Virus record (IMG/VR): IMGVR_UViG_3300035670_000104
Source of the DNA: an uncultured virus (IMG/VR IMGVR_UViG_3300035670_000104)
Taxonomy: Duplodnaviria > Heunggongvirae > Uroviricota > Caudoviricetes
DNA: 64,000 nt
Strand: one strand, 5' to 3'
Part shown: piece after piece, positions 2,948 to 58,176 of the stretch
Numbering within the stretch: position 1 is the stretch's first letter
How the letters are laid out: each line of letters starts with the position of its first letter
Made by a program: the position numbers and the translations under genes
Notes under the pieces: generated by a model
Database searches by the model: none
What the model was told of the DNA's origin: nothing
The model's input: the letters and a program-made list of their open reading frames with translations, nothing else

Positions 2948-2975
2948 TTCCAACATTGAACAACAAGGAGGAAAG

Positions 2976-4226
2976 ATGTACGCTAACCGTAGTGGAAAGA
3001 TCACAGTAGAACTTCATGAAAATTTGACAGCAACAGGATACATTGATGGGAAGAAAGTCTACAAGGGGAGTATCTTCAGAAAAGTGTCTGTAAAGACGCT
3101 AAATAGGGGGAAGTGGGATACTGAGGCTGAAGTTTTTCCTGTTGAAACAAAGGATGATCTATGGGATTTGAAATCCTCCCGAAAAGTCAAGTTTATGAAT
3201 AATCCGTCTAAGGAGTTTTATAAGAAACATGCAGTGACACCATCACAGTTCTGTAAGGTGTTTAATGCTGCCGTATTTAAGTCGGCTATTGCCCCTTATA
3301 TGGAATTTGCATCTTTGTATTTTCAAAGGAAGTCAAACATTCCCGGCAAATTTGCATCTGTTGTAAAAAATCATGACCTTCTTGTCCAAGCGGTGAAAGA
3401 TGGTCAAAAGAATATTCTACCACTCCTTAATAAATATGGAAAGACCCCTCAAGAGCTTAAGAAAGAGATGGGTAAAGGGTTGTGGAAGAGGTTGTGTGCG
3501 AATACGTTACACCGTAACAAGTTGATTATCCTTTCACCTAGACCGGTATGTGAAGCTATTAACCTTGACAGCGGTGCATTGGAATTTGAAAATGGTGCAG
3601 AAGCGGCACACTGGGTTAGGAATACCTGTAAAATCCCTTACTCTAAAAAGGACTCCCGCGATTGGAAAGACTCTCAAACCCTGTTTACAGATACTAAATT
3701 CATGGCATTGCAAAACGATCAACCTTTTAATCCTGAATGGTCTAAATTGAAGATGCAGGAGAAACACAATGAATACATGGGTATTGTACATCGCGCCCAG
3801 GAAGCTCGTCGTAAGGAACAAGATGAAGCGTATCGTTTGAAGATGGAAAAGATTGAGAAAATTGATTTGTCAAAAGTTTACCCTCAAACCGAATTTGAAT
3901 TAAATGGGGCTAAAGCTAAAATCTTAACGACTTATGAACAAATTAAACAAGAAGGTGTTGTTCAAAATCATTGCGTAGGAATTTACGCAGAGAGCGCCAC
4001 TGTTGGACAGTATGCTGTTGTTCATATTTCTGGCGATGACGAAGAAACCACCTTGGGATTGTCTACGTCTGTAGGTGCGGCTGGTAAGATTGTGTTCAGC
4101 ATTCAACAGCACTATGGAAAGTACAATTCAGGAGTTAGTAGTCAGGGTCACAAGGAGATTGCTGAGATTGTGGTAGAATATTTGAACAGCCTAAACTTGG
4201 AACGCAATCATTTTGAAAAGCTGTAA
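2976..4226 (+). CDS. PcfJ-like domain protein
   Basis: C-terminal EGVVQNHCVGIY and QHYGKYN motifs; AGGAGG RBS before ATG 2976. Confidence 0.75.
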   Translation: MYANRSGKITVELHENLTATGYIDGKKVYKGSIFRKVSVKTLNRGKWDTEAEVFPVETKDDLWDLKSSRKVKFMNNPSKEFYKKHAVTPSQFCKVFNAAVFKSAIAPYMEFASLYFQRKSNIPGKFASVVKNHDLLVQAVKDGQKNILPLLNKYGKTPQELKKEMGKGLWKRLCANTLHRNKLIILSPRPVCEAINLDSGALEFENGAEAAHWVRNTCKIPYSKKDSRDWKDSQTLFTDTKFMALQNDQPFNPEWSKLKMQEKHNEYMGIVHRAQEARRKEQDEAYRLKMEKIEKIDLSKVYPQTEFELNGAKAKILTTYEQIKQEGVVQNHCVGIYAESATVGQYAVVHISGDDEETTLGLSTSVGAAGKIVFSIQQHYGKYNSGVSSQGHKEIAEIVVEYLNSLNLERNHFEKL

Positions 4227-4244
4227 AAACAGAGGAACAGATTT

Positions 4245-4508
4245 ATGAAGCAAGTGAAACGTGTATCCCCTTATGGTGAACTAGACTGGATTGCTCCCGA
4301 AGAGCGAGATCGGTATATTTATGTCTATAAGGTGGACTTTGAGGAAGAAGGATTTAAGTCACCCGCAGCGTGGTATGTCAACACGGCCTTCGGAGATAGA
4401 TTGTATCTGAAGGCCCGCGACAGGAAGAAAGCGGAAGAGCTGGTGGTAAATTTCTTTGGTAGTGCGAAATATTCGCTAGTTGCAGATAAGGCAATTAATA
4501 TTCGATAA
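4245..4508 (+). CDS. hypothetical protein
   Basis: GAGGA RBS. Confidence 0.6.
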   Translation: MKQVKRVSPYGELDWIAPEERDRYIYVYKVDFEEEGFKSPAAWYVNTAFGDRLYLKARDRKKAEELVVNFFGSAKYSLVADKAINIR

Positions 4509-4518
4509 GGAGAAGTAG

Positions 4519-4704
4519 ATGACTGACTTTGTATTAATTTTCGTAAGTGGACTGGTTGTTGGTGCTGCCTGTGCAGGGTATACAGTAGCCAAAAGGGTGG
4601 ACAATAATATGGAACGGTCTTGTCAAGGGACGCCTTGGATTATTGAAGAGTCCTTAATCACAAAAACTTTGACTTGTAAAGTGGAATTGAAGGAGAAGAA
4701 ATGA
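4519..4704 (+). CDS. small membrane protein
   Basis: AGGAG RBS; N-terminal hydrophobic helix. Confidence 0.55.
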   Translation: MTDFVLIFVSGLVVGAACAGYTVAKRVDNNMERSCQGTPWIIEESLITKTLTCKVELKEKK

Positions 4705-4765
4705 AAAATCTAGCCATTGCTTGTGCCGTAGTAGTAGACTGTACAGACAAGAAAGGTAAGACGCT

Positions 4766-5065
4766 ATGAACCATTCAGCACGTAGAGCAGCGTTTTCGTC
4801 GGTAGAGGAGACATGTCCTTATGTAGACGAAGCGTTTTCAAACATGGTTTACGACATAAAACGCATGACAATTGATGAGTTGGCTGGTGCAGAGTTTGAC
4901 GAAGCTGTTGAAAAATGCGTTGACCTTGTGAAAGTACAAACTGTAGCTCTTCGTGATGCGCTGATATTTGCGTATGAAGAAAAAGAAGAGCTTACGGATG
5001 AGTTGAAAGACAAGATTTACTCCTTAGAACAGCGTATTCAAGAAATGGAGAACCAAATTGGCTAA
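4766..5065 (+). CDS. hypothetical coiled-coil protein
   Basis: ORF in operon. Confidence 0.6.
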   Translation: MNHSARRAAFSSVEETCPYVDEAFSNMVYDIKRMTIDELAGAEFDEAVEKCVDLVKVQTVALRDALIFAYEEKEELTDELKDKIYSLEQRIQEMENQIG

Positions 5066-5144
5066 AACTGATAAGTTGTATATGGACATTGCAAAACGTG
5101 TTGCACAAGAGTCTAAATGTCCACGAAAGAAAGTTGGGAGTTGA
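5058..5144 (+). pseudogene. 28-aa N-terminal stub of a dCMP deaminase
   Basis: GGAG RBS, TTG start; MAKTDKLYMDIAKRVAQESKCPRKKVGS* matches the deaminase N-terminal helix and SxCxRxxVG motif. Confidence 0.75.
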
Positions 5145-5147
5145 CAT

Positions 5148-5798
5148 ATGGCATATCAAGATATTACAGGAATACGTTCTGGAAGATTAGTTGCTGTTTC
5201 TTACAGTCATAAGAGTGAAAATAATGGTCATCTGTGGAATTGCATTTGTGACTGCGGAAATAAGTCGGTCGTAGGAGAATCTCAGATTAAAGGAGGACAC
5301 ACACTGTCTTGTGGTTGTTTAAGAAGAGATCGGTCTAAAGAAGCTGCCACCCATGGGCTGTACGGAACTCCTATTTATAGACGATGGGCTTCGATGAAGC
5401 AGCGATGTGATAATCCTAAGACAACAAATTTTGAAATTTACGGAGGTAGAGGAATAACCTACGACCCCGCGTGGAAAGATTTTGATGCTTTCTATAGAGA
5501 TATGTCAGAAGGTTTTAGAGATGATTTAGAATTAGACCGTATAGATGTAAATGGAAACTGCTGTAAAGAAAATTGCCGTTGGACAACCCACGAGGAAAAT
5601 AATTACAACAAGACTATTCAATCGAATAATATTTCAGGAAAAACTGGAGTATCGTTCGATAAACGTTCTAGTAGATGGAGGAGCTACATTAATTTTAAAG
5701 GTAAGAGGATAGAGCTTGGGAAGTTCATTACCATTGAGATGGCAGTTCAGGCGCGAGAGGAAGCAGAAATTAAATATTATGGATACAACAGAGATTAA
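5148..5798 (+). CDS. HNH-family homing endonuclease with C-terminal AP2-like domain
   Basis: CxCDCG, SCGC, YGGRGI, LDRID..ENCRW; SGKTGV..LGKF..AVQAREEAE. Confidence 0.9.
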   Translation: MAYQDITGIRSGRLVAVSYSHKSENNGHLWNCICDCGNKSVVGESQIKGGHTLSCGCLRRDRSKEAATHGLYGTPIYRRWASMKQRCDNPKTTNFEIYGGRGITYDPAWKDFDAFYRDMSEGFRDDLELDRIDVNGNCCKENCRWTTHEENNYNKTIQSNNISGKTGVSFDKRSSRWRSYINFKGKRIELGKFITIEMAVQAREEAEIKYYGYNRD

Positions 5799-6264
5799 GT
5801 ATAAACACAAACGAGCATACATGGAATGTGCTGAAGCTTTTGCTAAGTGCTCTGTCGGTAAGAGATTGACTGTAGGGACGGTGATTGTAAAAAATAACCG
5901 TATCATCTCTTGTGGGTATAATGCGCTACCAAAAGCAATTGACGGGCCTCTTGAGGACGAAAATAACGTCACCAAGGCTGAAGTCCGCCATAGTGAGAAA
6001 AGTGCGCTAATGGGGTTGATTCGATCTACTGAAAGTGCAGTTGGTGCTGTGATGTTCTGCACACATGCGTGCTGCAAACCGTGCTCTATTGACATCGTTG
6101 ATGCGGGAATAACACACTTTATCTATAAACATGATTACCGTTGCAAGGAAGGGTTAGAATACTTGAAGAAGAACGGAGTAAAGGTGGAAAAGTTTGAAGA
6201 AAATATTAATGATGACCATCCTTGTAGTAGGGATTCTCCTAACAACGAACAAGAGTGTTGTTGA
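5779..6264 (+). CDS. dCMP deaminase
   Basis: VGTVIVKNNRIISCGYN, HSE, CCKPC zinc motifs; exact start uncertain. Confidence 0.88.
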   Translation: MDTTEIKYKHKRAYMECAEAFAKCSVGKRLTVGTVIVKNNRIISCGYNALPKAIDGPLEDENNVTKAEVRHSEKSALMGLIRSTESAVGAVMFCTHACCKPCSIDIVDAGITHFIYKHDYRCKEGLEYLKKNGVKVEKFEENINDDHPCSRDSPNNEQECC

Positions 6265-6700
6265 GGGGATTCCTACGGAATCCGGGGCCTCTTCTGATGA
6301 CTACTACAAAGCCTTGTGCTTGAAGAGTTTGAAATGTAAGCTCTTGGCTGAAGGGGGCTACTATGAGGCGAGAGGGGAATCTGATGAAGGCGTGGCTGCT
6401 GTAATGTTTGTGATCCTCAACCGTGTGAAGCATCCTACGAGGTGGCCTTCTACTGTTGCAGAAGTTCTGTCGCAAAAGTTGCAATTTAGCTACAAGCATG
6501 ATGGTCAGATGAAGAAAGGTTTTGCAGAGAAGGAACAGTACGATAGAATTCTTGTGATTGCCGCGAAAGTGGTTACTGGTGCAATAGACTCTCCAGTAGG
6601 AGAAGCTACACACTACCACACAACCAGCATCAAAGTTCCTAAGTGGGCTAAGAAGAAAAGAAAGGTGGCTACAATTGGAGAACATGTATTCTATGAATGA
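6194..6700 (+). CDS. SleB/Hydrolase_2-like cell wall hydrolase
   Basis: YYEARGES, VILNRV, QFS, ATHYH, IGEHVFY; N-terminal hydrophobic signal. Confidence 0.88.
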   Translation: MKKILMMTILVVGILLTTNKSVVEGIPTESGASSDDYYKALCLKSLKCKLLAEGGYYEARGESDEGVAAVMFVILNRVKHPTRWPSTVAEVLSQKLQFSYKHDGQMKKGFAEKEQYDRILVIAAKVVTGAIDSPVGEATHYHTTSIKVPKWAKKKRKVATIGEHVFYE

Positions 6701-6892
6701 ACAACTTACAATGGACGACATTAAGTTACATGATGTCTGGATGATGAAGTGTGGTACAATAGTTCAAATCACTGTACTGCATGGAGGTTACACAGACAAG
6801 CCGTTTCAAGTAAGGCGTGCAGGTAGTTTGCACAACTGGGCGATGAATTTTCATCGTTTGGATTACAAAATTTCTGAATAAAGGAGAGAATT

Positions 6893-7264
6893 ATGGAATT
6901 TGCAATTTTTGTTTGGGTGGCTAGTGTGATTGGTAAATTGGCAGGTTTCTTTACTGGAGCTGCGATTTTGTTTGCAGCAGTGGTGGCAGTTGATATTATT
7001 TGTACAGCTAGCCATAATGGAGTGTACGATGAAAAGAAGAAGTATCCGTTTCAAAAGCGTTGGGGTAAGTGGTGTACATTTATCGCTGCATTTCTTATGC
7101 TAATCGCTTCTCTTCTTCCTTCTGAAAAGACAATGTATGTGATGGCTGGGGCATGGGCTGGGCAAAAGATGGTGGAATCTGAAGCAGCAGGGAAGGTGAT
7201 GAAAATCATCAACCTGAAGTTGGATGAATATTTGCAAGAAGCAGAGAAAGAGTTGAAGAAATGA
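6893..7264 (+). CDS. membrane protein
   Basis: AGGAG RBS; TM segments; LPSEKTMY. Confidence 0.65.
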   Translation: MEFAIFVWVASVIGKLAGFFTGAAILFAAVVAVDIICTASHNGVYDEKKKYPFQKRWGKWCTFIAAFLMLIASLLPSEKTMYVMAGAWAGQKMVESEAAGKVMKIINLKLDEYLQEAEKELKK

Positions 7265-7563
7265 AACATACACTAACTGCGGTTGTCTATGACAAAAGAG
7301 GAAGACCTCTTTCGATTGGGCAGAATTCATACACACGTACTCACCCAAGACAGGCTGCTATTGCTGCTAAAGTAGGACTTCCTGAGAAGAAATTTGTGCA
7401 TGCGGAATTTGTAGCCATTACAAAATGTAGAGACTTGAAGAAAGCACACAAGATTGTGATTACGAGGTATAATAAGCAAGGTGAGCCAGTGAACGCTAAA
7501 CCTTGTCCGGTGTGTATGGAGCTTATCAGGATTAGTGGCATTAAAGAAATCGAACATACTTGA
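7261..7563 (+). CDS. cytidine-deaminase-fold protein
   Basis: HAE and PCPVC zinc-binding motifs. Confidence 0.8.
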   Translation: MKHTLTAVVYDKRGRPLSIGQNSYTRTHPRQAAIAAKVGLPEKKFVHAEFVAITKCRDLKKAHKIVITRYNKQGEPVNAKPCPVCMELIRISGIKEIEHT

Positions 7564-7744
7564 AAGGAGCACATGTGAAGGTGTATCTATGTTATGAGCA
7601 ATATTTCGATGGGTGTGATTTTTGGCCTAAATTGCAGGTTGTTTTTGACACAGAAGATAAAGCATGGCGATGGGAGATTGAAAAAGGTATAGAGAACACC
7701 TGCGAGAATACTAGCTTTTACTATGAAGAATGGGAGGTTGAATA

Positions 7745-8002
7745 ATGAAATTTGAAACAGAAGTGAAGCCAACTCCAAAGCAACTCGCAGAAGCTTTTTG
7801 GAATATGTACGATGATGAGCAAGTGGAGTTCTTTGCTGAACTTTTCAATGCTGCAGGTATGGGAGAAAGCTACTACAACTTTGAGTTGCAAGCATTCCAT
7901 ATCCACGATAAAATTCGTAGTACGGAAAATGAGGAAGCTAAAGAAGCGTTGATGTCTTTGGCTGCACCATTCTTCTATCACACACTCAACGACACTTATT
8001 GA
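7745..8002 (+). CDS. hypothetical protein
   Basis: GGAGG RBS. Confidence 0.6.
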   Translation: MKFETEVKPTPKQLAEAFWNMYDDEQVEFFAELFNAAGMGESYYNFELQAFHIHDKIRSTENEEAKEALMSLAAPFFYHTLNDTY

Positions 8003-8013
8003 AAGGACTGTAT

Positions 8014-8244
8014 ATGAAAGTATTTGTTTGGAAAAGTTATGGTGAACTAGATATTCGAGACATCTCGACTCAGGAGCAAAAGACATTACTGAAGATTGAG
8101 TTAGTTAAAGCTTTGCAGTCTGAAGGAGAGACAGATGTTGACGAATCCATGTCTCTTGGAGGTGTTATTGACTTGGTTTATGACCAACTAGGCAATAGTG
8201 ATGTATTCGAGCATGGTACTGGTATTTATAAGGTGAAAGGATAA
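8014..8244 (+). CDS. hypothetical protein
   Basis: AGGA RBS. Confidence 0.55.
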   Translation: MKVFVWKSYGELDIRDISTQEQKTLLKIELVKALQSEGETDVDESMSLGGVIDLVYDQLGNSDVFEHGTGIYKVKG

Positions 8245-8246
8245 GT

Positions 8247-9353
8247 ATGTACGAGAAGGTTACACTATACACAAAACAAGGTGTAAAATTCCGCCAATGG
8301 TCGGTTTGGACAGAAGGTGCTGAAGTTATTGTTGAACACGGTCAGTTGGACAGTAAGCTAACACAAAAGCGTTACACAGCAGAACCTAGGAATGTTGGCC
8401 GCGCCAATGCCACTACGGCAGAAGAGCAAGCTACACAAGAGGCTGAAGCTAAGGTTGTAAAGCAGCTCAAAAGCGGGTATTACCACACAATCGAAGAAGC
8501 AACAGAACATGTAGAATTCACGCCTATGAAAGCTCAGAATAGTGATGATTACAAGCACAAGCTAGTGTTTCCTTGCTATATTCAACCAAAGCTTAATGGT
8601 CAACGCTTGATGATTGATAAGAATGGTAATGCTTGGTCAAAACAAGGAGAACCGTTAGAACTCCCTGAGCACTGGAAAAACGTAAAAGAAATTGCAAAAA
8701 CTTTTGGTGGGTTAGATGGGGAGATTTACGCAGGACTGGAAAATCGTGGTGGTTTGTCTCTTCAACAAATTATTTCTGCTTTTCGTAAACCAAACAAAGA
8801 TACTCAAAAGCTAAAACTGTTTGTCTATGACCTACCACTTAACAATCTGACGTTTAATTTACGACAAGCAATTATGTTTCAAATAGAAGAAGAATATGAT
8901 GTAAGTGATATTGTCATTGTAGCTCCAACAGTTGTGCAAAACTGGGAAGAGGCAGTGAGTATTGCGAAATCTTATGTTAAGCAAGGTTACGAAGGTGCAA
9001 TCTTGCGGAACTTTGATGGGATGTACGAATTCGGTAAACGTTCTTACGATCTGCAGAAACTTAAGTTTCGATTGGATGCCGAGGCCGTTGTTGTGTCTGT
9101 GACACAAGACAAGAATGGTGACGGTGTTCTTCTGTGTCAAGCTATCAACGGTAAGCAAACTGGTGTACAATTCGAGTGTCTTATGCGTAAGGATGCTGAT
9201 CCTAATATCAACTACCGGAAGTATTCTAATGCTTTGCTGTTGATTGGTAAAACGATCACATATGAGTATGAAGAGCTTTCAGACAAAGGTGTTCCGACGA
9301 AGCCTGTGGCAGTTAGTTTGCGGGAAATGGTTGGTAATGAAGGTCGTTATTAA
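8247..9353 (+). CDS. ATP-dependent DNA ligase
   Basis: QPKLNGQR (motif I), LDGEIY, YEGAILR, LQKLK; C-terminal OB fold. Confidence 0.92.
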   Translation: MYEKVTLYTKQGVKFRQWSVWTEGAEVIVEHGQLDSKLTQKRYTAEPRNVGRANATTAEEQATQEAEAKVVKQLKSGYYHTIEEATEHVEFTPMKAQNSDDYKHKLVFPCYIQPKLNGQRLMIDKNGNAWSKQGEPLELPEHWKNVKEIAKTFGGLDGEIYAGLENRGGLSLQQIISAFRKPNKDTQKLKLFVYDLPLNNLTFNLRQAIMFQIEEEYDVSDIVIVAPTVVQNWEEAVSIAKSYVKQGYEGAILRNFDGMYEFGKRSYDLQKLKFRLDAEAVVVSVTQDKNGDGVLLCQAINGKQTGVQFECLMRKDADPNINYRKYSNALLLIGKTITYEYEELSDKGVPTKPVAVSLREMVGNEGRY

Positions 9354-9362
9354 GGAGGAAAT

Positions 9363-9722
9363 ATGCTGAAGTTTGAAAAAGTAAATATGGTGGATGTTGG
9401 TGATTGGGATGCGTTAGTTGAAGAAACTTATGGAAAGCCTTATAGCTTCCAACAACAAGATGGTTGTAAGCCAAGAGGAGTGGAGCACTTCAGTGTTCCG
9501 AATCATTATCCGTGGGACTATGAAAATGACACACTCCCTTATAAAATCAACGGGGAAGAAATGGGAGTGAGTTTTAAAGAATGGTTGTCAACAAACCCGA
9601 CTGCTTATAAGGATATTTTCTGGGAGAGGAATTTTTACCTAGCACTAGAGATTCTTGCAGATGACCTATATCAGAGGGGTTTGATTCCAGAAGGTGAATA
9701 TACAATTAACGTTGATTGGTAA
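9363..9722 (+). CDS. hypothetical phage protein
   Basis: AGGAGG RBS. Confidence 0.7.
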   Translation: MLKFEKVNMVDVGDWDALVEETYGKPYSFQQQDGCKPRGVEHFSVPNHYPWDYENDTLPYKINGEEMGVSFKEWLSTNPTAYKDIFWERNFYLALEILADDLYQRGLIPEGEYTINVDW

Positions 9723-9733
9723 GGAGGAAATGT

Positions 9734-10429
9734 ATGAGTGGACGAAGACCGACACTATTAAAAGATGAGACAGGAAAGGTATATGGAAAGTGGACAGTCC
9801 TTCATCTAGACGAAGAATCTGATGTTAATACAAGGCATTGGGTCTGTAGATGTGAGTGCGGTACGGTTAAATCTGTTAGAGGACAAAGTTTAAGGGAGGG
9901 GAAAAACACTCAGTGCAAGGCATGCTGTTCAAAAGAACGTGCAGCGGCAAATGTAAAACACGGGGCACTGATTAAAGGAAAAGACAGGAAAACATTCTAT
10001 TCCTATGAAGCAATGTTAGCGAGATGTTTTAGAGAGGATAACCTCAACTATGAGAACTACGGGGGTCGTGGAATAACAGTATGTGCCAGGTGGATGGAAG
10101 ATGGTGGGAAAGGATATTTAAATTTTCACGAAGATATGGGAGAGCGCCCTAACAAACATGTTTTAGATCGAATAGATCCAAACAAAAATTATGAGCCCGA
10201 TAATTGCAGATGGGTTACTGGCTCTGAAAGTTCTTACAATAGGAGACGGTCCAAAAATAATCTATCGGGACGTACTGGGGTTACGTGGAACAAAGCCAGA
10301 GAATTGTGGTTAGCTACAATTTATATTAACTACAAAACAATTCAACTAGGGGCTTTTGATAGTTTTGAAGATGCTGTGAAAGCCAGGGAAGAAGCAGAGA
10401 TGAATTATTGGGGTTACACTAAAGAATGA
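9734..10429 (+). CDS. HNH/AP2 homing endonuclease
   Basis: CRCECG, YGGRGITVC, LDRIDP..NCRW, AP2-like tail. Confidence 0.9.
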   Translation: MSGRRPTLLKDETGKVYGKWTVLHLDEESDVNTRHWVCRCECGTVKSVRGQSLREGKNTQCKACCSKERAAANVKHGALIKGKDRKTFYSYEAMLARCFREDNLNYENYGGRGITVCARWMEDGGKGYLNFHEDMGERPNKHVLDRIDPNKNYEPDNCRWVTGSESSYNRRRSKNNLSGRTGVTWNKARELWLATIYINYKTIQLGAFDSFEDAVKAREEAEMNYWGYTKE

Positions 10430-10695
10430 AAGGAAATAATATGTCAAAAGACGGGATTGCCAAAATCCAAAACGTAGGGCAAGATGCTTCTGGTCAAACA
10501 GTGATCTACGTTCAAGGCACAAGTTCAGAAATTGCTGACACGAAGTTTTCAATGAAGATTCCAGATGGACCTTATGCTTTCTATAATCTGGAGGTAGCTA
10601 AGAAGCTAAAAGGTATGCAAGTAATTTTCACTTACTTGTCCACAAACGATGTTCGTGTGCCGCGTAGCATTACGTTTAAATCTGTGGTAGAGTAA
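10426..10695 (+). CDS. stand-alone DNA-ligase OB-fold-like protein
   Basis: Aligns by eye to the C-terminal ~85 aa of the ligase at 8247-9353. Confidence 0.55.
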   Translation: MKGNNMSKDGIAKIQNVGQDASGQTVIYVQGTSSEIADTKFSMKIPDGPYAFYNLEVAKKLKGMQVIFTYLSTNDVRVPRSITFKSVVE

Positions 10696-10735
10696 TTAGT
10701 CTAGTAGACTAATTTGTTTAATAAAGGAGAGAAGT

Positions 10736-10903
10736 ATGTTGGATGAACTACTGATTAAGAAGTATGATTTGAAGAATCGGCTAGCACTTCTAAATTCTGA
10801 GTGGAAAGAACTCGAAGATGACCTTCGTTGGTTAAAAGAGGATTACGAAGAGCTTGAAGAAGAACTGGCCCGCGTTGAGCAAGAAATTCAGGAGGAAATG
10901 TAA
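10736..10903 (+). CDS. small acidic coiled-coil protein
   Basis: AGGAG RBS; 55 aa, below ORF-track cutoff. Confidence 0.6.
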   Translation: MLDELLIKKYDLKNRLALLNSEWKELEDDLRWLKEDYEELEEELARVEQEIQEEM

Positions 10904-11196
10904 TGGCTAAAGTTTGGAAGAAGCTTACGGTAACTTTGACAAAAGAAATGACAGTAGGTGTAGATGAAGAGTGTCTGACGCCAGAGGCTCTGGAGTTGTT
11001 CTCCAATCATTTTTGGAGAGTCAGCGACCCAGATGAAATCTTTGATACAATCGGTGATCAGTATGTACGTAATGGTGCTAATTTCATCGAAGGTGTGGGT
11101 AAGGTTTCCAGTTGGAATCCAGAAATGCCTATCCAGATTATTGATGATTTCGAGGACACAGAAGTAGAGATTGCAGACGCTAAGGAGGAAATGTGA
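10903..11196 (+). CDS. hypothetical protein
   Basis: Coupled ORF. Confidence 0.6.
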   Translation: MAKVWKKLTVTLTKEMTVGVDEECLTPEALELFSNHFWRVSDPDEIFDTIGDQYVRNGANFIEGVGKVSSWNPEMPIQIIDDFEDTEVEIADAKEEM

Positions 11197-11324
11197 TGTA
11201 CGAGTTTGAGAAGGCTAAGATTAAGCAATCAATTGGTGTTGATGTCTATGACATGCTGAAAGACTTGAAGTGTGTTCTGGCAGGTGGAGCTATCACTTCT
11301 ATCTTTACAGGGAAAGAAGTCTAG
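11196..11324 (+). pseudogene. 42-aa N-terminal stub of a nucleotidyltransferase
   Basis: MYEFEKAK..CVLAGGAITSIFTGKEV* ends just before the expected DxD. Confidence 0.7.
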
Positions 11325-11327
11325 ATA

Positions 11328-12017
11328 ATGTCTAAGAGAGATATTGATGTAACAGGTCAAATCTTTTCTAGACTGACTGTAGTGGGAAGGGGTGCGCCAT
11401 ATTTCCCTCCGAGCGGACAAAAACCTATCCCAAGATGGATTTGTAATTGTGAATGTGGTAATACTGTAGAGGTTGGAATCTATCAACTCCTGTCTAAGCA
11501 CACTGAATCTTGTGGTTGTTTGCGAAAAGAGATTGCAGATAAAAATAGGACTAAGCATGGGATGAAGCATTCACGAATTTATAACATCCATCAGAATATG
11601 TTGGCTAGGTGCAATAGAAAGAGCCTTCCTGCTTACGAGGATTACGGAGCTAGAGGAATAACTGTGTGCGATAGGTGGATGGAAGAGGCCCCAAGTGGAT
11701 TTCTAAATTTCTTAGAAGATATGGGCGAGCCTACGAATGACTCATTAGAACTTGATAGAATTGATAACGAAAAAGGGTACTGCAAAGAAAATTGTAGGTG
11801 GACAAATAGGACAGAACAGTGCTATAACCAACGAAAGAGGAAAGACAACAAAACAGGGCGAACAGGAGTTTCTTGGAAAGAGTCTATAAATAAGTATCAA
11901 GTAGTTATTTCAAAAGATGGTAAGAACATCTATCTCGGGGTATACTCAAGCTTTGAACAAGCGTGTAAAGTGAGAGAAGAGGCTGAGATAGGTCTGTACG
12001 GATACGTAAAGGAGTAG
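11328..12017 (+). CDS. HNH/AP2 homing endonuclease
   Basis: CNCECG, SCGC, YGARGITVC, LDRIDN..ENCRW, AP2-like tail. Confidence 0.9.
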   Translation: MSKRDIDVTGQIFSRLTVVGRGAPYFPPSGQKPIPRWICNCECGNTVEVGIYQLLSKHTESCGCLRKEIADKNRTKHGMKHSRIYNIHQNMLARCNRKSLPAYEDYGARGITVCDRWMEEAPSGFLNFLEDMGEPTNDSLELDRIDNEKGYCKENCRWTNRTEQCYNQRKRKDNKTGRTGVSWKESINKYQVVISKDGKNIYLGVYSSFEQACKVREEAEIGLYGYVKE

Positions 12018-12020
12018 AAA

Positions 12021-12593
12021 ATGGAAACTATCGAAAATCAAAAGCGTGTAGCTAAGAAAATTCTGGAAAAGCTGTCTATCATTGATCCGTATGCCATTCT
12101 TGCTGGAGGTGCTCCTCGTGATTGGTATTTCAACGAAGAAGCTAAAGACCTGGATTTCTACTACTACACGCAAGAGCGTACAATGGGTGCAAGTAGTAAA
12201 CAACTGGAATTCTTCTTCCCCAAGGTTATTCCTTCTTTGCAAGGAGATGGTGATTGGAAGCTATACGAACATATGCCTGGATTGAAGCGTGTTTGGAATA
12301 CAACAATTGAAGGCATCCCTGTTCAATTCATTCAGATGGATTCAGAGGAAGCTCGGAGAAACGTTGTAGAGAACATGGACGTATCTATTTGCAAGATTTC
12401 AATGAATCGTTTTGAGACAACTTTGCACAAGGATTTCAAATTGACAGTTGGAAGCGGTAAAATGTTTTTGAAGGAAGGATATTCTTGGAACGACCCTCAC
12501 CCTACAAAAATGATTGAGAAGTACAAAGAAAAGTTCGGGACAACGTATTCTCGTGAAAGTGCAGTGGACTGGATGATTGCTAAAGTGGTTTAA
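12021..12593 (+). CDS. polyA-polymerase/CCA-type nucleotidyltransferase head-domain protein
   Basis: LAGGAPRD..KDLDF motif; MDVSICK. Confidence 0.75.
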   Translation: METIENQKRVAKKILEKLSIIDPYAILAGGAPRDWYFNEEAKDLDFYYYTQERTMGASSKQLEFFFPKVIPSLQGDGDWKLYEHMPGLKRVWNTTIEGIPVQFIQMDSEEARRNVVENMDVSICKISMNRFETTLHKDFKLTVGSGKMFLKEGYSWNDPHPTKMIEKYKEKFGTTYSRESAVDWMIAKVV

Positions 12594-12594
12594 T

Positions 12595-12918
12595 ATGTAC
12601 TACACAGAACTTCCTGAACTAGATGCTGCAAGATGGGAGGATAGTTTGGAAGCTCAACAAGACTTGTTTGAAAAGCTTTGTGAACAGAAAGCTACACTCC
12701 CTGAATACGACCCATTTACAATGGAACATTTGTACGAGTCTTTGTGCTACACTACAAAGGAACAAGACAAGAAAGTAGAAGAAGCTATGAGAGCTTTTGA
12801 TAAGTCAAATAGTCTTGAAGATGCTTTCTTGTTAGCTTCTTTGTTAATTGGGTTGACAACATCTCTTCAAAACAATAGAATTGAAGAAGATGTGATTAAA
12901 GAAATGAAAGGAATGTAA
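12595..12918 (+). CDS. hypothetical protein
   Basis: ORF in operon. Confidence 0.55.
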   Translation: MYYTELPELDAARWEDSLEAQQDLFEKLCEQKATLPEYDPFTMEHLYESLCYTTKEQDKKVEEAMRAFDKSNSLEDAFLLASLLIGLTTSLQNNRIEEDVIKEMKGM

Positions 12919-14015
12919 TGGAGGTAATTAAGTTCTTGCAGAGTAATGCAAATGATTTTTCAAAACTAACTCTAGCTTTTGGTATCAAAGTCAAAGACTA
13001 TCCAGAACAAGGGATTGTGGTACTAAATTACGACCAGATTGAAAGCCCTAAAATGGACCCTGTTGTCGTAGAGTGTCGTGGCCTTATTCTGGATTACAAT
13101 CTTAACGTACTCTGCCGACCTTTTGATCGCTTCTTCAACTACGGAGAAGCTTTTACAGATAAGATGGATTTGACAGGTTACACTTACCAACCCAAACTCG
13201 ATGGTAGCCTTATTAAAGTTTACTGGCTGGGTGGTAGTTGGCGCATTGCAACCCGTGGTACAGCATTTGCAGAATCAGATGTTGGTGGATGGGGTATCAC
13301 CTTTGAAGAATTAACTCTTCGTGCTCTAGGCTTCGATTCTTTGGTTATGTTTAGTGAAGCAATGGAAGACGAGGGTATGCCTCACCACTACACGTGCCTT
13401 CTAGAGCTTACAGCAATGGAGAACAGGGTTGTAACATACTATTCAGAACCATCTGTCACACTATTGGCTGTAAGAAACAACCAATCAGGTGATTACGCCC
13501 CTGCTGAAAACTATGCTACATACTTTTGGAAAACAAACAGCGTAGTGTCTGGGTTGACCATTGAAGACATCATTCAAAAGGCAGACAGTTTGAAAAACCT
13601 TGAAGAAGGATTTGTAGGATATGACCAACAGGGTGTCCCTCGAATCAAGATCAAATCTGCTGCCTATGTGGCTGTCCACCACATCCGAGGAGAAGGATTG
13701 AATCCAAAACGGGTTGCAGAACTTGTGATTTCCGGAGAGGAAGAGGAATATTTGACCTACTTCCCAGAAGATCGTGATACAATCCTGCCATACTCGAATT
13801 CTTTGAGTAAACTTATCTCTGAGTTAGAAGTGGCTATGTTTAAAAACCACAAGATTAAAGATCAAAAAGAATTTGCATTAGCTATTAAAGATGTGTATAG
13901 TAAGTCTGTATTGTTTACCGCACGAAAGTTGAATATTCCGGTTGCAGAGGCATTTCATGGTGGTACAATGCAGGCTAAGGTAAAAGCATTGTTAGGTTAT
14001 TCACAAAGGAGTTAA
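12918..14015 (+). CDS. RNA ligase 1 (T4 Rnl1-like)
   Basis: ECRGLI, RPFDRFFN, KLDGSL, EGFV, RIKIKS. Confidence 0.9.
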   Translation: MEVIKFLQSNANDFSKLTLAFGIKVKDYPEQGIVVLNYDQIESPKMDPVVVECRGLILDYNLNVLCRPFDRFFNYGEAFTDKMDLTGYTYQPKLDGSLIKVYWLGGSWRIATRGTAFAESDVGGWGITFEELTLRALGFDSLVMFSEAMEDEGMPHHYTCLLELTAMENRVVTYYSEPSVTLLAVRNNQSGDYAPAENYATYFWKTNSVVSGLTIEDIIQKADSLKNLEEGFVGYDQQGVPRIKIKSAAYVAVHHIRGEGLNPKRVAELVISGEEEEYLTYFPEDRDTILPYSNSLSKLISELEVAMFKNHKIKDQKEFALAIKDVYSKSVLFTARKLNIPVAEAFHGGTMQAKVKALLGYSQRS

Positions 14016-14016
14016 A

Positions 14017-14496
14017 ATGAAGGCTGAGATTTTGATCGGTGTATCCGCCAGCGGAAAGACAACTTATGCAACAATGCTTGAGGGATACACAACTATCTCT
14101 CGTGATGACATTCGTTTTGGTATTGTTGCTAAGGGTAAGAACTGGACTAACTACAAGTTCTCTAAGGAGAATGAGAACAAGGTCACAGAGATTCAACAAC
14201 AAATGATTGAAGATTGTGCCAAGCACGGAGAGAATGTCGTTATTGCTGATACAAATCTCAACCCTTCTGTCCGTCAAAAGGTGGTGGAAAAGCTTCGTGC
14301 TTGTGGCTATGAGGTTAGCTTTGTAATGTTCCAAGTCAGTAAAGCCGATTGCATTGAGCGAGATTCTTACCGTGGTGCATTCTCTGTTGGGGAAGATGTT
14401 ATTGAAAAGCAATGGGAGAATTGGGAACGTACTGTACGAGGAATGAAGTCGGAGAAGAAGCGACTTGGTGTGAACGTTGTTTATTTGGAGAATTAA
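14017..14496 (+). CDS. polynucleotide kinase (kinase domain)
   Basis: GVSASGKTT, SRDDIR, IADTNL, CIERD..R. Confidence 0.85.
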   Translation: MKAEILIGVSASGKTTYATMLEGYTTISRDDIRFGIVAKGKNWTNYKFSKENENKVTEIQQQMIEDCAKHGENVVIADTNLNPSVRQKVVEKLRACGYEVSFVMFQVSKADCIERDSYRGAFSVGEDVIEKQWENWERTVRGMKSEKKRLGVNVVYLEN

Positions 14497-14497
14497 A

Positions 14498-15076
14498 ATG
14501 AGTAAAATCTGGGTAACGAGTGATCTTCACATTAGTCATAGGAAAATCTGTGAATACACCGACCGTAAGCTGGTGGTATCTCAAGACCTGCACGACCAAT
14601 GGCTTATTGATCTTTGGAATTCACAAGTTAGCAAGAACGACACTGTTATTCAATGCGGAGACTTTGTTTTCAATTGTCGTGATTTCAATAAGTGGCAATC
14701 TGTTGTAAATCAACTGAATGGAAAGATTATTCACATTGCTGGCAATCACGATTCACACGAAGTTCTGCGTAAGTCTAGACATGAGTGGTATGACCTGAAG
14801 ACAAAGACATTCTCTGTCGGAGGTGTTAAACGACAGTTTGTATTCTGTCACTACGCTATGAGAGTGTGGCAAAATAGTCACCACGGTAGTATTCATTGCT
14901 TCGGACACAGCCATGGAGGGATCAAGGAGCAACACGGAAAGAGCCTTGATGTTGGGCTAGACAGCAGCTATAATTACTTTGGAAAACACAAGTTTTTCTC
15001 TTTGGAGGAGATTGTAGAAATTGCTGACCGACAGGGTGTTGCAACAGTAGATCATCACACAGAAAGGACACAATAA
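14498..15076 (+). CDS. calcineurin-like phosphoesterase
   Basis: SDLH, GD, GNHD, HY, GHSH. Confidence 0.88.
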   Translation: MSKIWVTSDLHISHRKICEYTDRKLVVSQDLHDQWLIDLWNSQVSKNDTVIQCGDFVFNCRDFNKWQSVVNQLNGKIIHIAGNHDSHEVLRKSRHEWYDLKTKTFSVGGVKRQFVFCHYAMRVWQNSHHGSIHCFGHSHGGIKEQHGKSLDVGLDSSYNYFGKHKFFSLEEIVEIADRQGVATVDHHTERTQ

Positions 15077-30329: not shown

Positions 30330-31124
30330 TTATTTTCCTTTCTTACCTCGGACATAGCCTTGAGAATCTACCCACTCCAAAGTTTTCAAAACATTTTCGT
30401 GAGCAGTGTCTTCATTATCGAAGTATCCTACACACTTTTGTTTAATTGGTGAACAACTCGTTAGTCTATAGTTGACATATGCTCTCCACTTATTTTTAGA
30501 ATTGCTCCAGCAGACTCCATAGTATTTAGAAGTTTTTCCAGAGTAGAATCTTTTCCCATTCGGAGTAGTTCCATCCAATTCTAAGAAATGTTCCACAATT
30601 TCATCATCTGTATGTGTTGATTTCATGGCTACAGCCTCTTCATATCTCTTTTTCGCTTTATCTATTTCATGTAGTCCAAATATTCCAACACATGTTCCAA
30701 CATTGTTAATGGAGATTATACTTCTCAGTGTCTCACCATCCTGTGCAACTCCGATTACACCCGTACCTCTTTTAATTGCTAATGTCAAGTTATTTTGCTG
30801 TTCTCTTTTTGTTGCCCACCGGCAATTCTCTTTTGAATACCCCAAATCATTGTCAATCCTGTCAATTGTCATCCCATCTGGACGTGGAAACATATCTTGC
30901 AAGAAGTTTTTAAAACCTGACGCACTATCCCATCTCCATTCAAAACAAACAGTGATACCCGAGCCTCCATAATGATTATATGCCTTGTGCCTGTCATCAT
31001 AGCACCTAACATTCATCATTCTCCAAGTCATGAACAACTCGTGAGAATTATAACTCTCTACACCAACCTGCCTTGTATACGCTATCTCACCAGAAAATTT
31101 TCTCTTGTATCCCATTATGACCAT
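30330..31124 (-). CDS. HNH homing endonuclease with AP2-like domains
   Basis: YGGSGITVC, IDRIDN..ENCRW; SKYYGVCW. Confidence 0.88.
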   Translation of the reverse strand: MVIMGYKRKFSGEIAYTRQVGVESYNSHELFMTWRMMNVRCYDDRHKAYNHYGGSGITVCFEWRWDSASGFKNFLQDMFPRPDGMTIDRIDNDLGYSKENCRWATKREQQNNLTLAIKRGTGVIGVAQDGETLRSIISINNVGTCVGIFGLHEIDKAKKRYEEAVAMKSTHTDDEIVEHFLELDGTTPNGKRFYSGKTSKYYGVCWSNSKNKWRAYVNYRLTSCSPIKQKCVGYFDNEDTAHENVLKTLEWVDSQGYVRGKKGK

Positions 31125-44779: not shown

Positions 44780-44824
44780 AGCATAAACACCCGTAGGGTG
44801 TTTATTTATTTATCGGAGATGAAT

Positions 44825-45520
44825 ATGGGTGTTAGTAGAGTTGGCGTACTTGTTGGAGATAAAAACAATTTCCTAGAAGTTCTATACCTAGTTAAGTGGC
44901 GCGCGTCAAGTAAGATTCGGACAATGGCTTGGGTAAGGTGTGTCTGCGGCGTGGAAAAGTTTATCAAGGCCAGCGATTTTAAGAGGGGGACGACAAAGAG
45001 TTGTGGATGTAAACGGTCATTTTTAATATCGAAGGGAGAGGGTAATCACGGGTACTCTCATCACCCCCTGTGGAGCATTTATTCTTCTATGAAACAGAGG
45101 TGTAAAGATCAGTCGCAACAAGCATACTCCGAATATGGTGGAAGAGGTATTAGAGTGTGTGATAGATGGCTTGAACCTGATGGGAAAGGATTCCTGAACT
45201 TTCTTGAAGACATGAGTGAACGTCCTGAAGGTATGACACTAGATAGGATTAATCCGGACGGTGATTATTGTAAAGAAAATTGCAGATGGGAAAGTAGAAA
45301 TGTCCAGTCTTTTAACACAAGAAAAAGAAAAGACAATCCTCTAGGTTGTACTGGAGTTGGATTATCTGAGAATGGCGAGAAATATCTTGCTCGTATAGCT
45401 GTTGGTGGAAAGACAATTCACTTGGGAACATTTTTGTCTTTAGAGTCAGCAATTACTGCGCGAAGGCAAGCTGAGTTAAAATATTATGGTGAATTAAAAC
45501 CAGAAGCAAGGGAGGAATAA
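44825..45520 (+). CDS. HNH/AP2 homing endonuclease
   Basis: CVCG, SCGC, YGGRGIRVC, LDRINP..ENCRW, AP2-like tail; ATAAACACCC/GGGTGTTTAT hairpin upstream. Confidence 0.9.
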   Translation: MGVSRVGVLVGDKNNFLEVLYLVKWRASSKIRTMAWVRCVCGVEKFIKASDFKRGTTKSCGCKRSFLISKGEGNHGYSHHPLWSIYSSMKQRCKDQSQQAYSEYGGRGIRVCDRWLEPDGKGFLNFLEDMSERPEGMTLDRINPDGDYCKENCRWESRNVQSFNTRKRKDNPLGCTGVGLSENGEKYLARIAVGGKTIHLGTFLSLESAITARRQAELKYYGELKPEAREE

Positions 45521-46536
45521 TGAGCTTTCACACGAACTTAGTTGATGCAGACTGGATACTTCATGCAGCATCTCACTCCGGGGAGAAAAAGACGATTAAG
45601 GCAATTGAAAAGCAATCAGGTAATGAATATGATCTGAAGTCACGTACTGAGCTGTGGGGTCGGAAGAAGTCTAGGGATGGCGGTTTTCTTGCCGAACTGA
45701 ATAAGTCTAGAACAACACTCCTCACATGGGAAGACTTTGACATTATTGATGTACAAACACCAGAAGAAATCTCTAATGTTCTTCATACAGTCAAGATGAT
45801 GGTGCAAGGTGTTGCCAAGTCAACCGGCGTAGAAAGGACAAAGTTATTTGTTGGCGAAGGTAAATCCTTTAGATACGACAGAGCAACTCTTCTAGAATAC
45901 AAGGGAACGAGAACTCATAACCTTATTCCAGTACACAAAGATGCGGTTAAAGAGTATTTGATTAAACATCATGGAGCAGAAGTCATTACCGATCTAGAAG
46001 TGGATGACTGGGTTGTGTGTTTAGGTCAAGAAAAAGGTAATCTTGTAGTGTCTGTTGACAAAGATAGTATGGGATGCCCTATTGATCTTTTTAATCCTAT
46101 GCATCCTGAGTGGGGTATTATGGATTGTAGAGGTCTTGGAAAATTATGGTGGGATACAACAGGTAAGCAAAAGAAGCTCCGTGGTATTGGTCGTAAGTGG
46201 TTGTATACACAATGCCTAATTGGAGACCCAGTTGATGCGATTAGTCCGACAGCAGCATCTACTCTAGAGTTTGGTGAGGTATCGGCATTTAACGCCCTAA
46301 GCGAATGCACATCAGATTTGGAATGCTTTAAGATTATGAAAGATGTCTACCAGAAAATGTACCCAAAGATGGTGAGAGTACACCACTGGAATTCTACAGA
46401 AGATAATCCGATTATTCTGAATGTTGATTGGCGCTACGCACTTAACGAAGTATGGGATTTGGTTAGGATGCGTAGAAGTGTTGACGATATTGTAACTGCT
46501 CAGGAAGTATTTACAAAACACGGACTTTGGAATTGA
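45520..46536 (+). CDS. 5'-3' exonuclease (T7 gp6/FEN-like)
   Basis: VDADW, YKGTR, EVDD, VDKD, GDPVD. Confidence 0.88.
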   Translation: MSFHTNLVDADWILHAASHSGEKKTIKAIEKQSGNEYDLKSRTELWGRKKSRDGGFLAELNKSRTTLLTWEDFDIIDVQTPEEISNVLHTVKMMVQGVAKSTGVERTKLFVGEGKSFRYDRATLLEYKGTRTHNLIPVHKDAVKEYLIKHHGAEVITDLEVDDWVVCLGQEKGNLVVSVDKDSMGCPIDLFNPMHPEWGIMDCRGLGKLWWDTTGKQKKLRGIGRKWLYTQCLIGDPVDAISPTAASTLEFGEVSAFNALSECTSDLECFKIMKDVYQKMYPKMVRVHHWNSTEDNPIILNVDWRYALNEVWDLVRMRRSVDDIVTAQEVFTKHGLWN

Positions 46537-46550
46537 GAAAGTGTGGTATA

Positions 46551-55101: not shown

Positions 55102-55110
55102 GGAGGAAAT

Positions 55111-57450: not shown

Positions 57451-58176
57451 ATGGACGTTGGGGAAGTATACGAAAGTAAGAGATGTGGTAAATTGGAAAT
57501 TTTAGAATATATCAACTACAAGAATGTTGTTGTAAAATTTCAAGATACTGGTGAAGTATATACCTTTTATAAACAGGCAATCGTATCTGGGAATGTCTTG
57601 GATAGAATGTGCCCAACTGTGGTAGGAGTGGGCTACCTAGGCAGGGGAGGTTTTAAAGCCACACACGATGGGAGAAATTCAAAATGTTACCGTGCGTGGG
57701 TTGCTATGCTCACCCGATGCTATGATCCTGAAAGTTGGCACGAATCCTATATTGGATGTTCGGTCGATGATAATTGGCACAATTTTCAAAATTTTGCAGA
57801 ATGGTACTACACTAATTACATCGAAGGTTGGGAAGTGGATAAGGATTTTTGTGTCTTTGGAAATAAACACTATAGTAAGGAATTTTGTACATTCATTCCA
57901 CAGGAAATAAACACTTTTGCTCCAAGAAGTAACAAAAGAAAATTCCAAGGATTCACTATGACAAGCTCGGGGAAATTTGTGACACAATTGCTAAGCAATA
58001 GGTTTGGGAATTACTATAAAATATTCAATACATCGGAGGAGGCTTATTCTGATTACTGTAGAGTTAAAAATATTGATGCTGGACTTTTAGCTGAGAAGTG
58101 GAAAGGTGAAATAGATGAGAGAGTTTATGCAAATTTGGTAAATTTCGACACAGATGCATATATAAATTCTTTCTAA
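57451..58176 (+). CDS. HNH-family homing endonuclease (distinct subfamily)
   Basis: W..MLTRCY, WHNFQNFAEW, EVDKD, YS..FCTFIP..IN. Confidence 0.8.
   Translation: MDVGEVYESKRCGKLEILEYINYKNVVVKFQDTGEVYTFYKQAIVSGNVLDRMCPTVVGVGYLGRGGFKATHDGRNSKCYRAWVAMLTRCYDPESWHESYIGCSVDDNWHNFQNFAEWYYTNYIEGWEVDKDFCVFGNKHYSKEFCTFIPQEINTFAPRSNKRKFQGFTMTSSGKFVTQLLSNRFGNYYKIFNTSEEAYSDYCRVKNIDAGLLAEKWKGEIDERVYANLVNFDTDAYINSF

Follow-up and report, generated by a model that had tools for sequence, protein, structure and literature searches.

The 64,000-nucleotide (nt) stretch of DNA analyzed here, referred to as the window, comes from an uncultured Caudoviricetes virus (IMG/VR record IMGVR_UViG_3300035670_000104) and contains three related free-standing genes of the HNH/AP2 (IPA-HNH) endonuclease type, HNH1, HNH2, and HNH3, two of which directly follow the truncated 5' end of an enzyme gene. 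HNH2 truncated a resident gene for a nucleotidyltransferase resembling the phage protein Gad2, and HNH1 truncated a resident deaminase gene. We consider it reasonably probable that all three endonuclease genes entered this phage lineage, which has genomes of ~86 kb, through break repair with homology on just one side. The genes lie in a single dense run on the plus strand (4,200 to 13,000), over which scans for promoters and terminators gave counts not above those of shuffled sequence. Each of the three shows presence/absence polymorphism among close relatives. The relatives compared were a metagenome sequence, L016, found by a scan with the ligase gene (78% amino acid [aa] identity in the ligase), which is collinear with the window and lacks HNH1, HNH2, and HNH3, and Logan contigs from four runs (X5 to X8) of four studies, aligned to positions 4200 to 13000 at a likeness of at least 80%.

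At locus 2, a short open reading frame (ORF) on the plus strand, stub2 (11193..11324; probable start ATG at 11196), comprises the first 43 codons of a gene for a Gad2-like nucleotidyltransferase, with a strong Shine-Dalgarno sequence, AAGGAGG, six bases ahead of the ATG. It matches positions 1 to 43 of the 365 in phrog_18122 (E value, 2e-11) and, by tblastn, residues 1 to 43 of annotated genes, including that for Gad2 of SPbetaL7. The stub ends one residue ahead of the catalytic N-D-x-D motif, in the sequence GTC TAG ATA ATG, where the ATG at 11328 starts HNH2 (11328..12017, plus strand); the two are in frame, the stop being separated from the ATG by 3 nt. The initial annotation had predicted that relatives without the endonuclease would carry, at the same place, an intact gene beginning as the stub does, and at this locus they do. 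L016 has an intact 315-aa Gad2-like gene (L016:11749-12696; phrog_18122 E value, 2.7e-81) that is 39% identical to SPbetaL7 Gad2 over 228 aa (E value, 5e-54) and identical to stub2 at 41 of the first 43 residues. Window positions 11183 to 11320 correspond to L016 positions 11739 to 11876 at 95.7% nt identity; the homology is lost within codon 43 and picks up again at 12594, a single base ahead of the next gene's ATG, so that the stop codon, HNH2, and the gene behind it (11321 to 12593) occupy the place of Gad2-like codons 44 to 315. The remaining part of the Gad2-like gene was not found elsewhere in the window. In contigs of X6, X7, and X8, the match to stub2 runs on beyond 11305 to 11314 into the N/M-D-x-D motif of an intact gene (...D-W-D-L-Y... 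and ...N-D-F-D-I...).

The gene behind HNH2, here called NT (12021..12593, plus strand), encodes a complete 190-aa nucleotidyltransferase (phrog_10174 E value, 1.4e-25; phrog_1614 E value, 5.3e-15). HNH2 has no well-placed Shine-Dalgarno sequence of its own, and its last codons, AAG GAG TAG, form that of NT. NT and the Gad2-like gene have only an N-terminal motif in common (35% identity over 31 aa; E value, 0.006), and phrog_1614 is matched by both; NT is a distant paralog of the Gad2-like gene. The X8 contig (86,129 nt) has no piece matching HNH2 or HNH3. Between one end of the contig and its match to 11196 to 11314 there are 439 nt. The match to 12019 to 12917, which covers NT and the gene after it, is 432 nt away from the other end, where the loose end ahead of NT reads T-I-P-Y-stop, the same end as that of the L016 gene, and then 15 nt. 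The two distances add up to 871 nt; L016 would predict 841 nt, and an overlap of 30 nt in a circular assembly makes up the difference. Read in this way, X8 carries an intact Gad2-like gene and NT side by side. Since this adjacency exists without HNH2, NT was not brought in by HNH2, and since NT was already resident, HNH2 replaced Gad2-like codons 44 to 315 without bringing a substitute.

The other stub, stub1 (5058..5144, plus strand), corresponds to the first 27 to 28 codons of a deoxycytidine monophosphate (dCMP) deaminase of the UAVern/PBS1 type. Its TTG start overlaps the stop codon of an upstream 99-aa ORF, and it ends in the sequence GGG AGT TGA CAT ATG, again in frame with the endonuclease and with its stop 3 nt before the ATG of HNH1 (5148..5798, plus strand). 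Residues 2 to 27 match the dCMP deaminase family phrog_174 (E value, 1.4e-8). Against the N termini of annotated deaminases, tblastn gave 68% identity with that of the Pseudomonas phage UAVern (residues 2 to 26) and 72% with those of the Bacillus phages PBS1 and AR9, and the match begins at residue 2 of the annotated genes. The stub ends after the residues K-V-G-S, where the conserved VGAVIV strand begins. Stub1 covers profile positions 114 to 139 of phrog_174 and stops before both the H-x-E and the C-x-x-C zinc motifs, and it is therefore a fragment and not an enzyme. The sequence GGGAG, 7 nt upstream of the HNH1 ATG, lies within the final codons of the stub. The initial annotation had described short 5' enzyme-gene stubs ahead of two of the HNH/AP2 genes, each in frame with the endonuclease and closed 3 nt before its start (TGA-CAT-ATG and TAG-ATA-ATG), and a complete diverged homolog behind each endonuclease. 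All of this held up on analysis, and the profile and tblastn results exclude the stubs being chance ORFs.

The last 20 nt of HNH1 overlap the start of a complete dCMP deaminase gene of the Pakpunavirus/phiAB441 type, deamB (5779..6264, plus strand; phrog_174 E value, 6.8e-43), in which the catalytic H-S-E and C-K-P-C motifs are present. Its product is 63 to 65% identical to the deaminases of ZGC (a Pakpunavirus) and phiAB441, 35% identical to that of UAVern, and 35% identical to stub1. In distant syntenic phages, a single deaminase gene lies between the protease and ligase genes, of the stub1 type in UAVern and of the deamB type in Pakpunaviruses. At this locus, the L016 deaminase is of yet a third type (48% identity to deamB), and its gene precedes one for a DNA methylase. 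At the nt level, deamB and the L016 deaminase gene are ~50% identical over 5779 to 6165 and match at 33 of 34 positions over 6166 to 6199. The 22-aa tail of deamB (from ~6195) corresponds to the 3' end of the N6/N4 DNA methylase gene (L016:7099-7920), which is otherwise missing from the window; the deaminase and methylase homology blocks overlap by 5 nt, which suggests either a microhomology deletion or an insertion of the methylase gene. By these alignments, deamB is chimeric, its body being foreign and its 3' end local, the outcome expected of co-conversion with HNH1, and it is plausible that the diverged deaminase allele was co-imported together with HNH1. An X6 contig has 4510 joined to 5763, with 11 other letters between, and all that is left of HNH1 ahead of deamB is its final 36 nt; this joint looks like loss of the endonuclease by deletion. 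We also considered that stub1 and a short deaminase encoded at 7261 to 7563 might be the halves of one gene, with abutting PHROG positions (114 to 139 and 140 to 221). That idea was rejected, as the 100-aa protein at 7261 to 7563 belongs to a widespread stand-alone family with the same gene length in many phages, and the UAVern deaminase does not match it.

For HNH3 (9734..10429, plus strand), which has a strong Shine-Dalgarno sequence of its own, the initial annotation had proposed the mirror image, with an intact ligase gene upstream and a ligase C-terminal remnant downstream. The ATP-dependent DNA ligase gene (8247..9353, plus strand) is indeed complete and encodes its own OB domain (phrog_114 E value, 2.4e-73; Pfam DNA_ligase_A_M and OB_2), but it does not adjoin HNH3: another complete gene, orf119 (9363..9722, plus strand; phrog_27943), lies between them. 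This gene is an indel bounded by an 11-nt repeat, AAGGAGGAAAT, at 9352 and 9721, and in an X5 contig orf119 is absent and the ligase gene is joined directly to HNH3 (joint from 9350 to 9720, with 12 shared letters). HNH3 itself occurs in the window as well as in X5 and X7 contigs, whereas L016 and other contigs, from X6 and X7, lack it. The X6 and X7 contigs that bridge the site join 9362/9364 to 10470/10471, leading from the ligase end directly to orf89, the gene immediately behind HNH3 in the window; L016 has the ligase gene, a 57-aa ORF, and then orf89.

The product of orf89 (10426..10695, plus strand; likely start at 10441) is a stand-alone protein with a DNA-ligase-type OB fold. It has no Pfam or PHROG match and is collinear with ligase residues 276 to 350, the OB domain. 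A Smith-Waterman alignment with the C-terminal 109 residues of the ligase gave a z score of 4.7, with 1 of 500 shuffles reaching the score, compared to 5 of 500 with the whole ligase; hhalign gave an E value of 0.018, though a probability of just 2.5%. In a structural model built from nine sequences (predicted local distance difference test score [pLDDT], 78), ligase OB domains took ranks 1 to 7 and 9 among 48,161 chains, the top seven with Z scores of 10.2 to 7.8. The best match was the Chlorella virus ligase (2q2t; Z score, 10.2; root mean square deviation [rmsd], 2.2 Å; 78 residues aligned), and generic OB folds reached Z scores of at most 7.4. The protein is thus predicted by the model to fold as a ligase-type OB domain, in line with the ligase relationship proposed in the initial annotation. 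The idea of a decaying remnant did not stand. The protein is 92% identical to its L016 counterpart, with 15 synonymous versus 7 nonsynonymous codon differences, and has homologs in seven clusters of 83 to 85 aa, from which we conclude that orf89 is a maintained gene under purifying selection and not debris.

The 11-nt repeat at orf119, a Shine-Dalgarno sequence plus spacer, occurs four times in the window versus 0.08 times expected, in each case at a gene boundary (9352-9362, 9721-9731, 11182-11192, and 55100-55110), and AAGGAGGAAAT may be a recombination hot spot for swaps of gene cassettes. Separately, a low-depth X6 contig has window position 10150, in HNH3, joined to 5535, in HNH1, with 15 other letters between. 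This joint could come from a further paralog, from a recombinant between the copies, or from an assembly chimera.

Partial copies of neighboring genes were also found beside members of the endonuclease family in other phages. A profile scan of IMG/VR gave at least 561 relatives, and the best 80 were kept. For 77 loci, the 190 nt upstream of the endonuclease ORF were compared with the 285 nt downstream in three frames, with codon-shuffled controls, and 7 of the 77 reached a z score of 5 or more; these represent five distinct cases, one of them unconvincing. The other four (the set L093/96/97, L094, L069, and L040) have an intact upstream gene and, after the endonuclease, a diverged copy of the last 18 to 35 residues of that upstream gene, beginning no more than 6 nt from the endonuclease stop. 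The upstream genes encode a neck/tail-completion protein, a member of phrog_2072, a large terminase, and an unnamed ORF product, and in two of the four loci (L094 and L097) the remnant and the upstream gene match the same PHROG. Another locus, L057, may be a case with a 5' remnant. The flank pairs of the window are too diverged for this simple test, and its count is therefore a lower bound. A pairwise blastp comparison of upstream and downstream ORFs at 45 IMG/VR loci was not discriminating.

The initial annotation counted three related genes; the window in fact holds at least six members of the family. A fourth copy (44819..45520, plus strand) stands behind a hairpin terminator, with its own Shine-Dalgarno sequence and without a stub. 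A fifth (30330..31124, minus strand) lies between a primase-helicase gene with a probable intein and the DNA polymerase gene, with a 26-nt overlap with the start of the latter, and a sixth, distant member (57451..58176, plus strand) matches phrog_953 best and phrog_374 as well. HNH1, HNH2, and HNH3 are 37 to 42% identical in pairs, and the multicopy family of the window as a whole is diverged, at 26 to 44% identity. All three match phrog_374, labeled HNH endonuclease in PHROG, with E values of 2.8e-76 for HNH1, 8.1e-71 for HNH2, and 4.1e-67 for HNH3. The Pfam AP2 profile matched HNH1 (E value, 1.8e-6) and HNH3 (E value, 1.2e-4), both under the gathering score, and gave no match for HNH2. The HNH1 model (pLDDT, 94.6) clearly predicts a C-terminal AP2 DNA-binding domain: residues 162 to 216 superimpose on the GCC-box domain of AtERF1 (2gcc) with a Z score of 7.0 and an rmsd of 1.6 Å over 53 residues, and Foldseek gave the AP2 domain a probability of 1.00 and matched nothing in the model beyond it. 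The nuclease core of the family is less certain than the AP2 domain. The sole PDB match of a 49-member family profile was I-HmuI (1u3e), and it was weak (E value, 0.035).

Under the mechanism that we favor, an endonuclease from a co-infecting donor phage would make its cut next to a conserved motif of the resident enzyme gene. Repair on the far side, away from the endonuclease gene, would use homology, with a crossover inside the 3' end of the deaminase gene at locus 1 and in or beyond the neighboring nucleotidyltransferase gene at locus 2. On the near side there would be no homology, so that the broken end would become attached to the edge of the endonuclease gene by illegitimate joining. What lies outside the cut in the resident gene would survive as a remnant, here the 28-codon deaminase stub and the 43-codon Gad2-like stub, and the gene for the ligase-type OB protein beside HNH3 may be the 3' equivalent, left by an older event. 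The lost function may be covered by the distant homolog beside the endonuclease; this homolog would have been imported at the deaminase locus and already resident at the nucleotidyltransferase locus. Because the finished allele would be homologous to unbroken targets on both sides, it could then spread by ordinary homing. The stub would keep its own ribosome-binding site and start codon, and ribosomes that terminate at its stop, only 3 nt away from the endonuclease ATG, would probably reinitiate on the endonuclease gene. What the sequences show are the remnants and their breakpoints, the chimera in the deaminase gene, the presence/absence polymorphism, and the recurrence in other phages; this probable coupling of translation, the cut sites, and the direction of the events we infer.

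The initial annotation had suggested that the endonuclease and a cleavage-resistant distant homolog form one mobile unit that displaces the victim gene. Locus 1 fits this suggestion: deamB is Pakpunavirus-like over codons 1 to 129 and of the local type only in its last 34 nt; the stub1-HNH1-deamB block is collinear in the 86,129-nt X8 contig at 96% identity (5033 to 6660), with different sequence upstream of 5033; and PAK_P2 has a member of the endonuclease family ~0.7 kb upstream of its deaminase gene that is absent from its relative ZGC. At locus 2, however, the homolog was not imported, as X8 already has NT directly behind an intact Gad2-like gene without HNH2. Moreover, NT and the Gad2-like gene share just a motif and are both present, unlinked, in Vibrio phage R16F, and L016 has neither HNH2 nor NT. 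We regard it as unlikely that such a displacement unit operated at both loci. A different possibility is that the endonuclease genes did arrive by break repair or illegitimate recombination, with the cut at another position, such as one close to the downstream gene's 5' end, and that exonuclease resection removed most of the upstream gene. The stubs would then be collateral, and their motif positions and frame coincidental. One-sided homing in T4 involves extensive degradation and microhomology junctions, and free-standing endonucleases often cut away from their own genes (PMC2988022, in the sections available), and the common frame of the two stubs would arise by chance in about 1 case in 9. 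Against such a coincidence, both stub ends and the start of the OB copy lie at the edges of catalytic or conserved motifs, and at the four other loci no more than 6 nt separate the endonuclease stop from the start of the remnant, as expected if the edge of the gene meets the cut end. We find this explanation quite improbable.

It is also conceivable, though in our judgment very improbable, that the proteins are not active nucleases, being for example DNA-binding regulators of the AP2 type, and that the mosaic arose by shuffling of modules at conserved gene-boundary sequences. The canonical first histidine of the HNH motif is an invariant arginine in the family, and the boundary motif found four times versus 0.08 expected flanks the orf119 indel. 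Yet the left junctions are inside coding sequence and not at gene boundaries, and the family is multicopy, diverged (26 to 44%), polymorphic between near-identical genomes, and repeatedly flanked by partial duplicates of a neighboring gene, which together are typical marks of homing elements.

Several observations weigh against one-sided entry of active endonucleases as we have described it. The nuclease motif of the family appears atypical, in that the position of the catalytic histidine of I-HmuI is occupied by the invariant arginine (D-R-I-D aligned to D-H-K-D), and the nuclease fold match of the HNH1 model is weak (PacI; Z score, 4.8; rmsd, 4.6 Å; 87 residues aligned). The end of a stub need not be the cut site, since resection before illegitimate joining would look alike, and the ~1-in-9 chance of the shared reading frame counts here as well. 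At locus 1, an intact deaminase gene of the stub1 type behind the 99-aa ORF was not found in any relative, stub1 being too short as a query for large collections, and the likeness of an X7 contig ends at 5060, exactly at the start of stub1. At locus 2, the arrangement in X8 was read from match tables and loose ends of 30 letters. The orf89 gene is conserved, under selection, and present without HNH3, which leaves its link to an endonuclease event conjectural. Finally, none of 29 short ORFs upstream of IMG/VR family members had the look of an enzyme stub by PHROG, and the flank pairs of the window itself had z scores of at most 1.4 in the flank test.

The closest precedent is provided by the mORF hybrid genes of fungal mitochondria, for which PMC3630166 cites Paquin et al. 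1994. Such genes include atp6 of Allomyces macrogynus and atp6, atp9, cox2, and nad3 of Glomus, and the arrangement that results consists, in order, of the gene core, a foreign C terminus, the endonuclease ORF, and the displaced native C terminus (PMC3630166, as far as the text was available). In both settings, an endonuclease ORF in or against a gene is flanked by a diverged imported copy and a displaced native part, and in the fungal cases the native part is close to endonuclease-free relatives and the inserted part distant (PMC3630166). The same contrast is seen at locus 2, where stub2 is 95.7% identical at the nt level to endonuclease-free L016 and NT has only a common motif, and at locus 1, where the identity of stub1 is 68% with UAVern-type deaminases and 35% with deamB. 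The fungal endonucleases are of the LAGLIDADG or GIY-YIG type, and the C terminus is replaced and fused in frame (PMC3630166), whereas the window has HNH/AP2 genes in a phage. The 5' version in the window also differs in that an N-terminal stub is closed by a stop and followed by a whole separate gene, with nothing imported at locus 2. In-frame fusion of an imported part to a host gene core was not seen at these loci; the stubs end in stops, the downstream genes are separate and complete, and only the 3' end of deamB is fused.

Similarities extend to the seg and mob genes of T4, which are likewise free-standing endonuclease genes between or against conserved genes, with presence/absence polymorphism, co-conversion of flanks, and microhomology junctions (PMC2988022, in the sections available). 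One-sided homing with illegitimate, microhomology junctions is described there (section 5, citing Parker et al. 1999). The neighbors in the T4 cases are intact or split into two working halves (nrdA/mobE, gene 39-60/mobA, and gene 43/seg), and those sections, unlike what is seen in the window, mention no dead 5' stub beside a paralog. The window genes also resemble the ICP1-like phage AP2-associated HNH (IPA-HNH) genes of Barth et al. 2023, which the Pfam HNH profile misses, in having a divergent HNH region and a C-terminal AP2 domain and in being multicopy, near essential genes, and at boundaries of genetic exchange (PMC10448857, in the part available). Gene remnants and pseudogenes are not mentioned in that part, and none of its mentions of truncation, splitting, or disruption is about a partially duplicated target gene, which is unlike the window. 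Literature searches with partial coverage, supplements excluded, gave no account of phage endonuclease genes that are flanked by remnants of their target genes. Within that coverage, the remnant-flanked pattern is known from fungal mitochondria and has no phage description, and the 5' stub form in a phage is new.

Gad2 is a verified anti-Gabija protein of SPbeta-like phages with a predicted nucleotidyltransferase domain, and inhibition of Gabija has been shown just for SPbetaL7 Gad2 and a Brevibacillus homolog (bioRxiv 10.1101/2023.05.01.538930, from the portion available). The L016 protein, with its predicted nucleotidyltransferase N terminus, is a homolog and a candidate anti-Gabija protein. 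It differs in having 315 aa versus 400 aa and a dissimilar C-terminal part, and the window keeps only 43 codons. With a gad2 homolog as one victim, endonuclease drive can evidently erase a phage counter-defense gene. More generally, the window offers a base-resolved natural example of the entry of a free-standing homing endonuclease into a protein-coding gene without an intron or intein, together with the residue left behind, and the remnant ends make precise predictions of cut sites for this endonuclease family. The signature of a gene, an endonuclease, and a diverged copy of the gene's end also stands beside terminase and neck genes of unrelated phage contigs. It could therefore help in annotating short orphan ORFs, in locating endonuclease targets across whole genomes, and in following gene exchange among phages.

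A broader and tentative proposal, which we would not rate as probable, is that this endonuclease family routinely makes partial gene duplications in phages, in 5' and 3' forms, and that the by-products are reused, the 5' stub as a translated leader acting by termination and reinitiation and the displaced domain as a new small gene, with orf89 (purifying selection; at least seven clusters) as the candidate. If so, selfish endonucleases would give rise to new phage genes as well as to distant paralogs in tandem, such as the Gad2-like gene and NT.

Additional features were noted in the endonucleases and their surroundings. Residues 1 to 52 of the HNH1 model form a small β-barrel N-terminal domain. 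C34, C36, C55, and C57 of HNH1 are invariant or near-invariant in the family alignment and probably form a zinc site, and the near-invariant H69 might stand in for the absent HNH histidine. PADLOC, run on the window, gave only a weak "homing endonuclease" match, to HNH2. In searches with other parts of the window, megablast against the phage collection found no close relative, and blastn found matches only at 66 to 70%, to the ligase and deaminase genes. Scans of IMG/VR with the 99-aa ORF, orf97, the ligase, NT, and the L016 Gad2-like protein gave, at most, the near-identical record G001. Another record, L006, was dismissed as a relative, as it had a weak 33-aa match and no further window gene. 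Compared with L016, the window has indels at a 442-aa ORF (2970-4241) and at orf97 (10917-11182), the latter without a tblastn match among phages.

Downstream of locus 2, NT (12021-12593) adjoins genes for an RNA ligase, a polynucleotide kinase, and a phosphoesterase (12918-15076), which suggests that NT and these neighbors form an RNA (tRNA) repair module; the RNA-repair set spans 12921 to 15059 in the window, and L016 has a different phosphoesterase gene instead. Elsewhere in the window, two genes beyond the fourth HNH/AP2 copy and directly behind a gene for an exonuclease, there is a gene of another HNH family (46527-47150, plus strand; phrog_1985). The 882-aa product of the primase-helicase gene (31190-33838, minus strand) contains an inserted segment that begins with C-H-G-E, ends with H-N-S, and best matches intein-containing terminase families. 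This segment is probably an intein with a homing-endonuclease domain, another mobile element of this genome.

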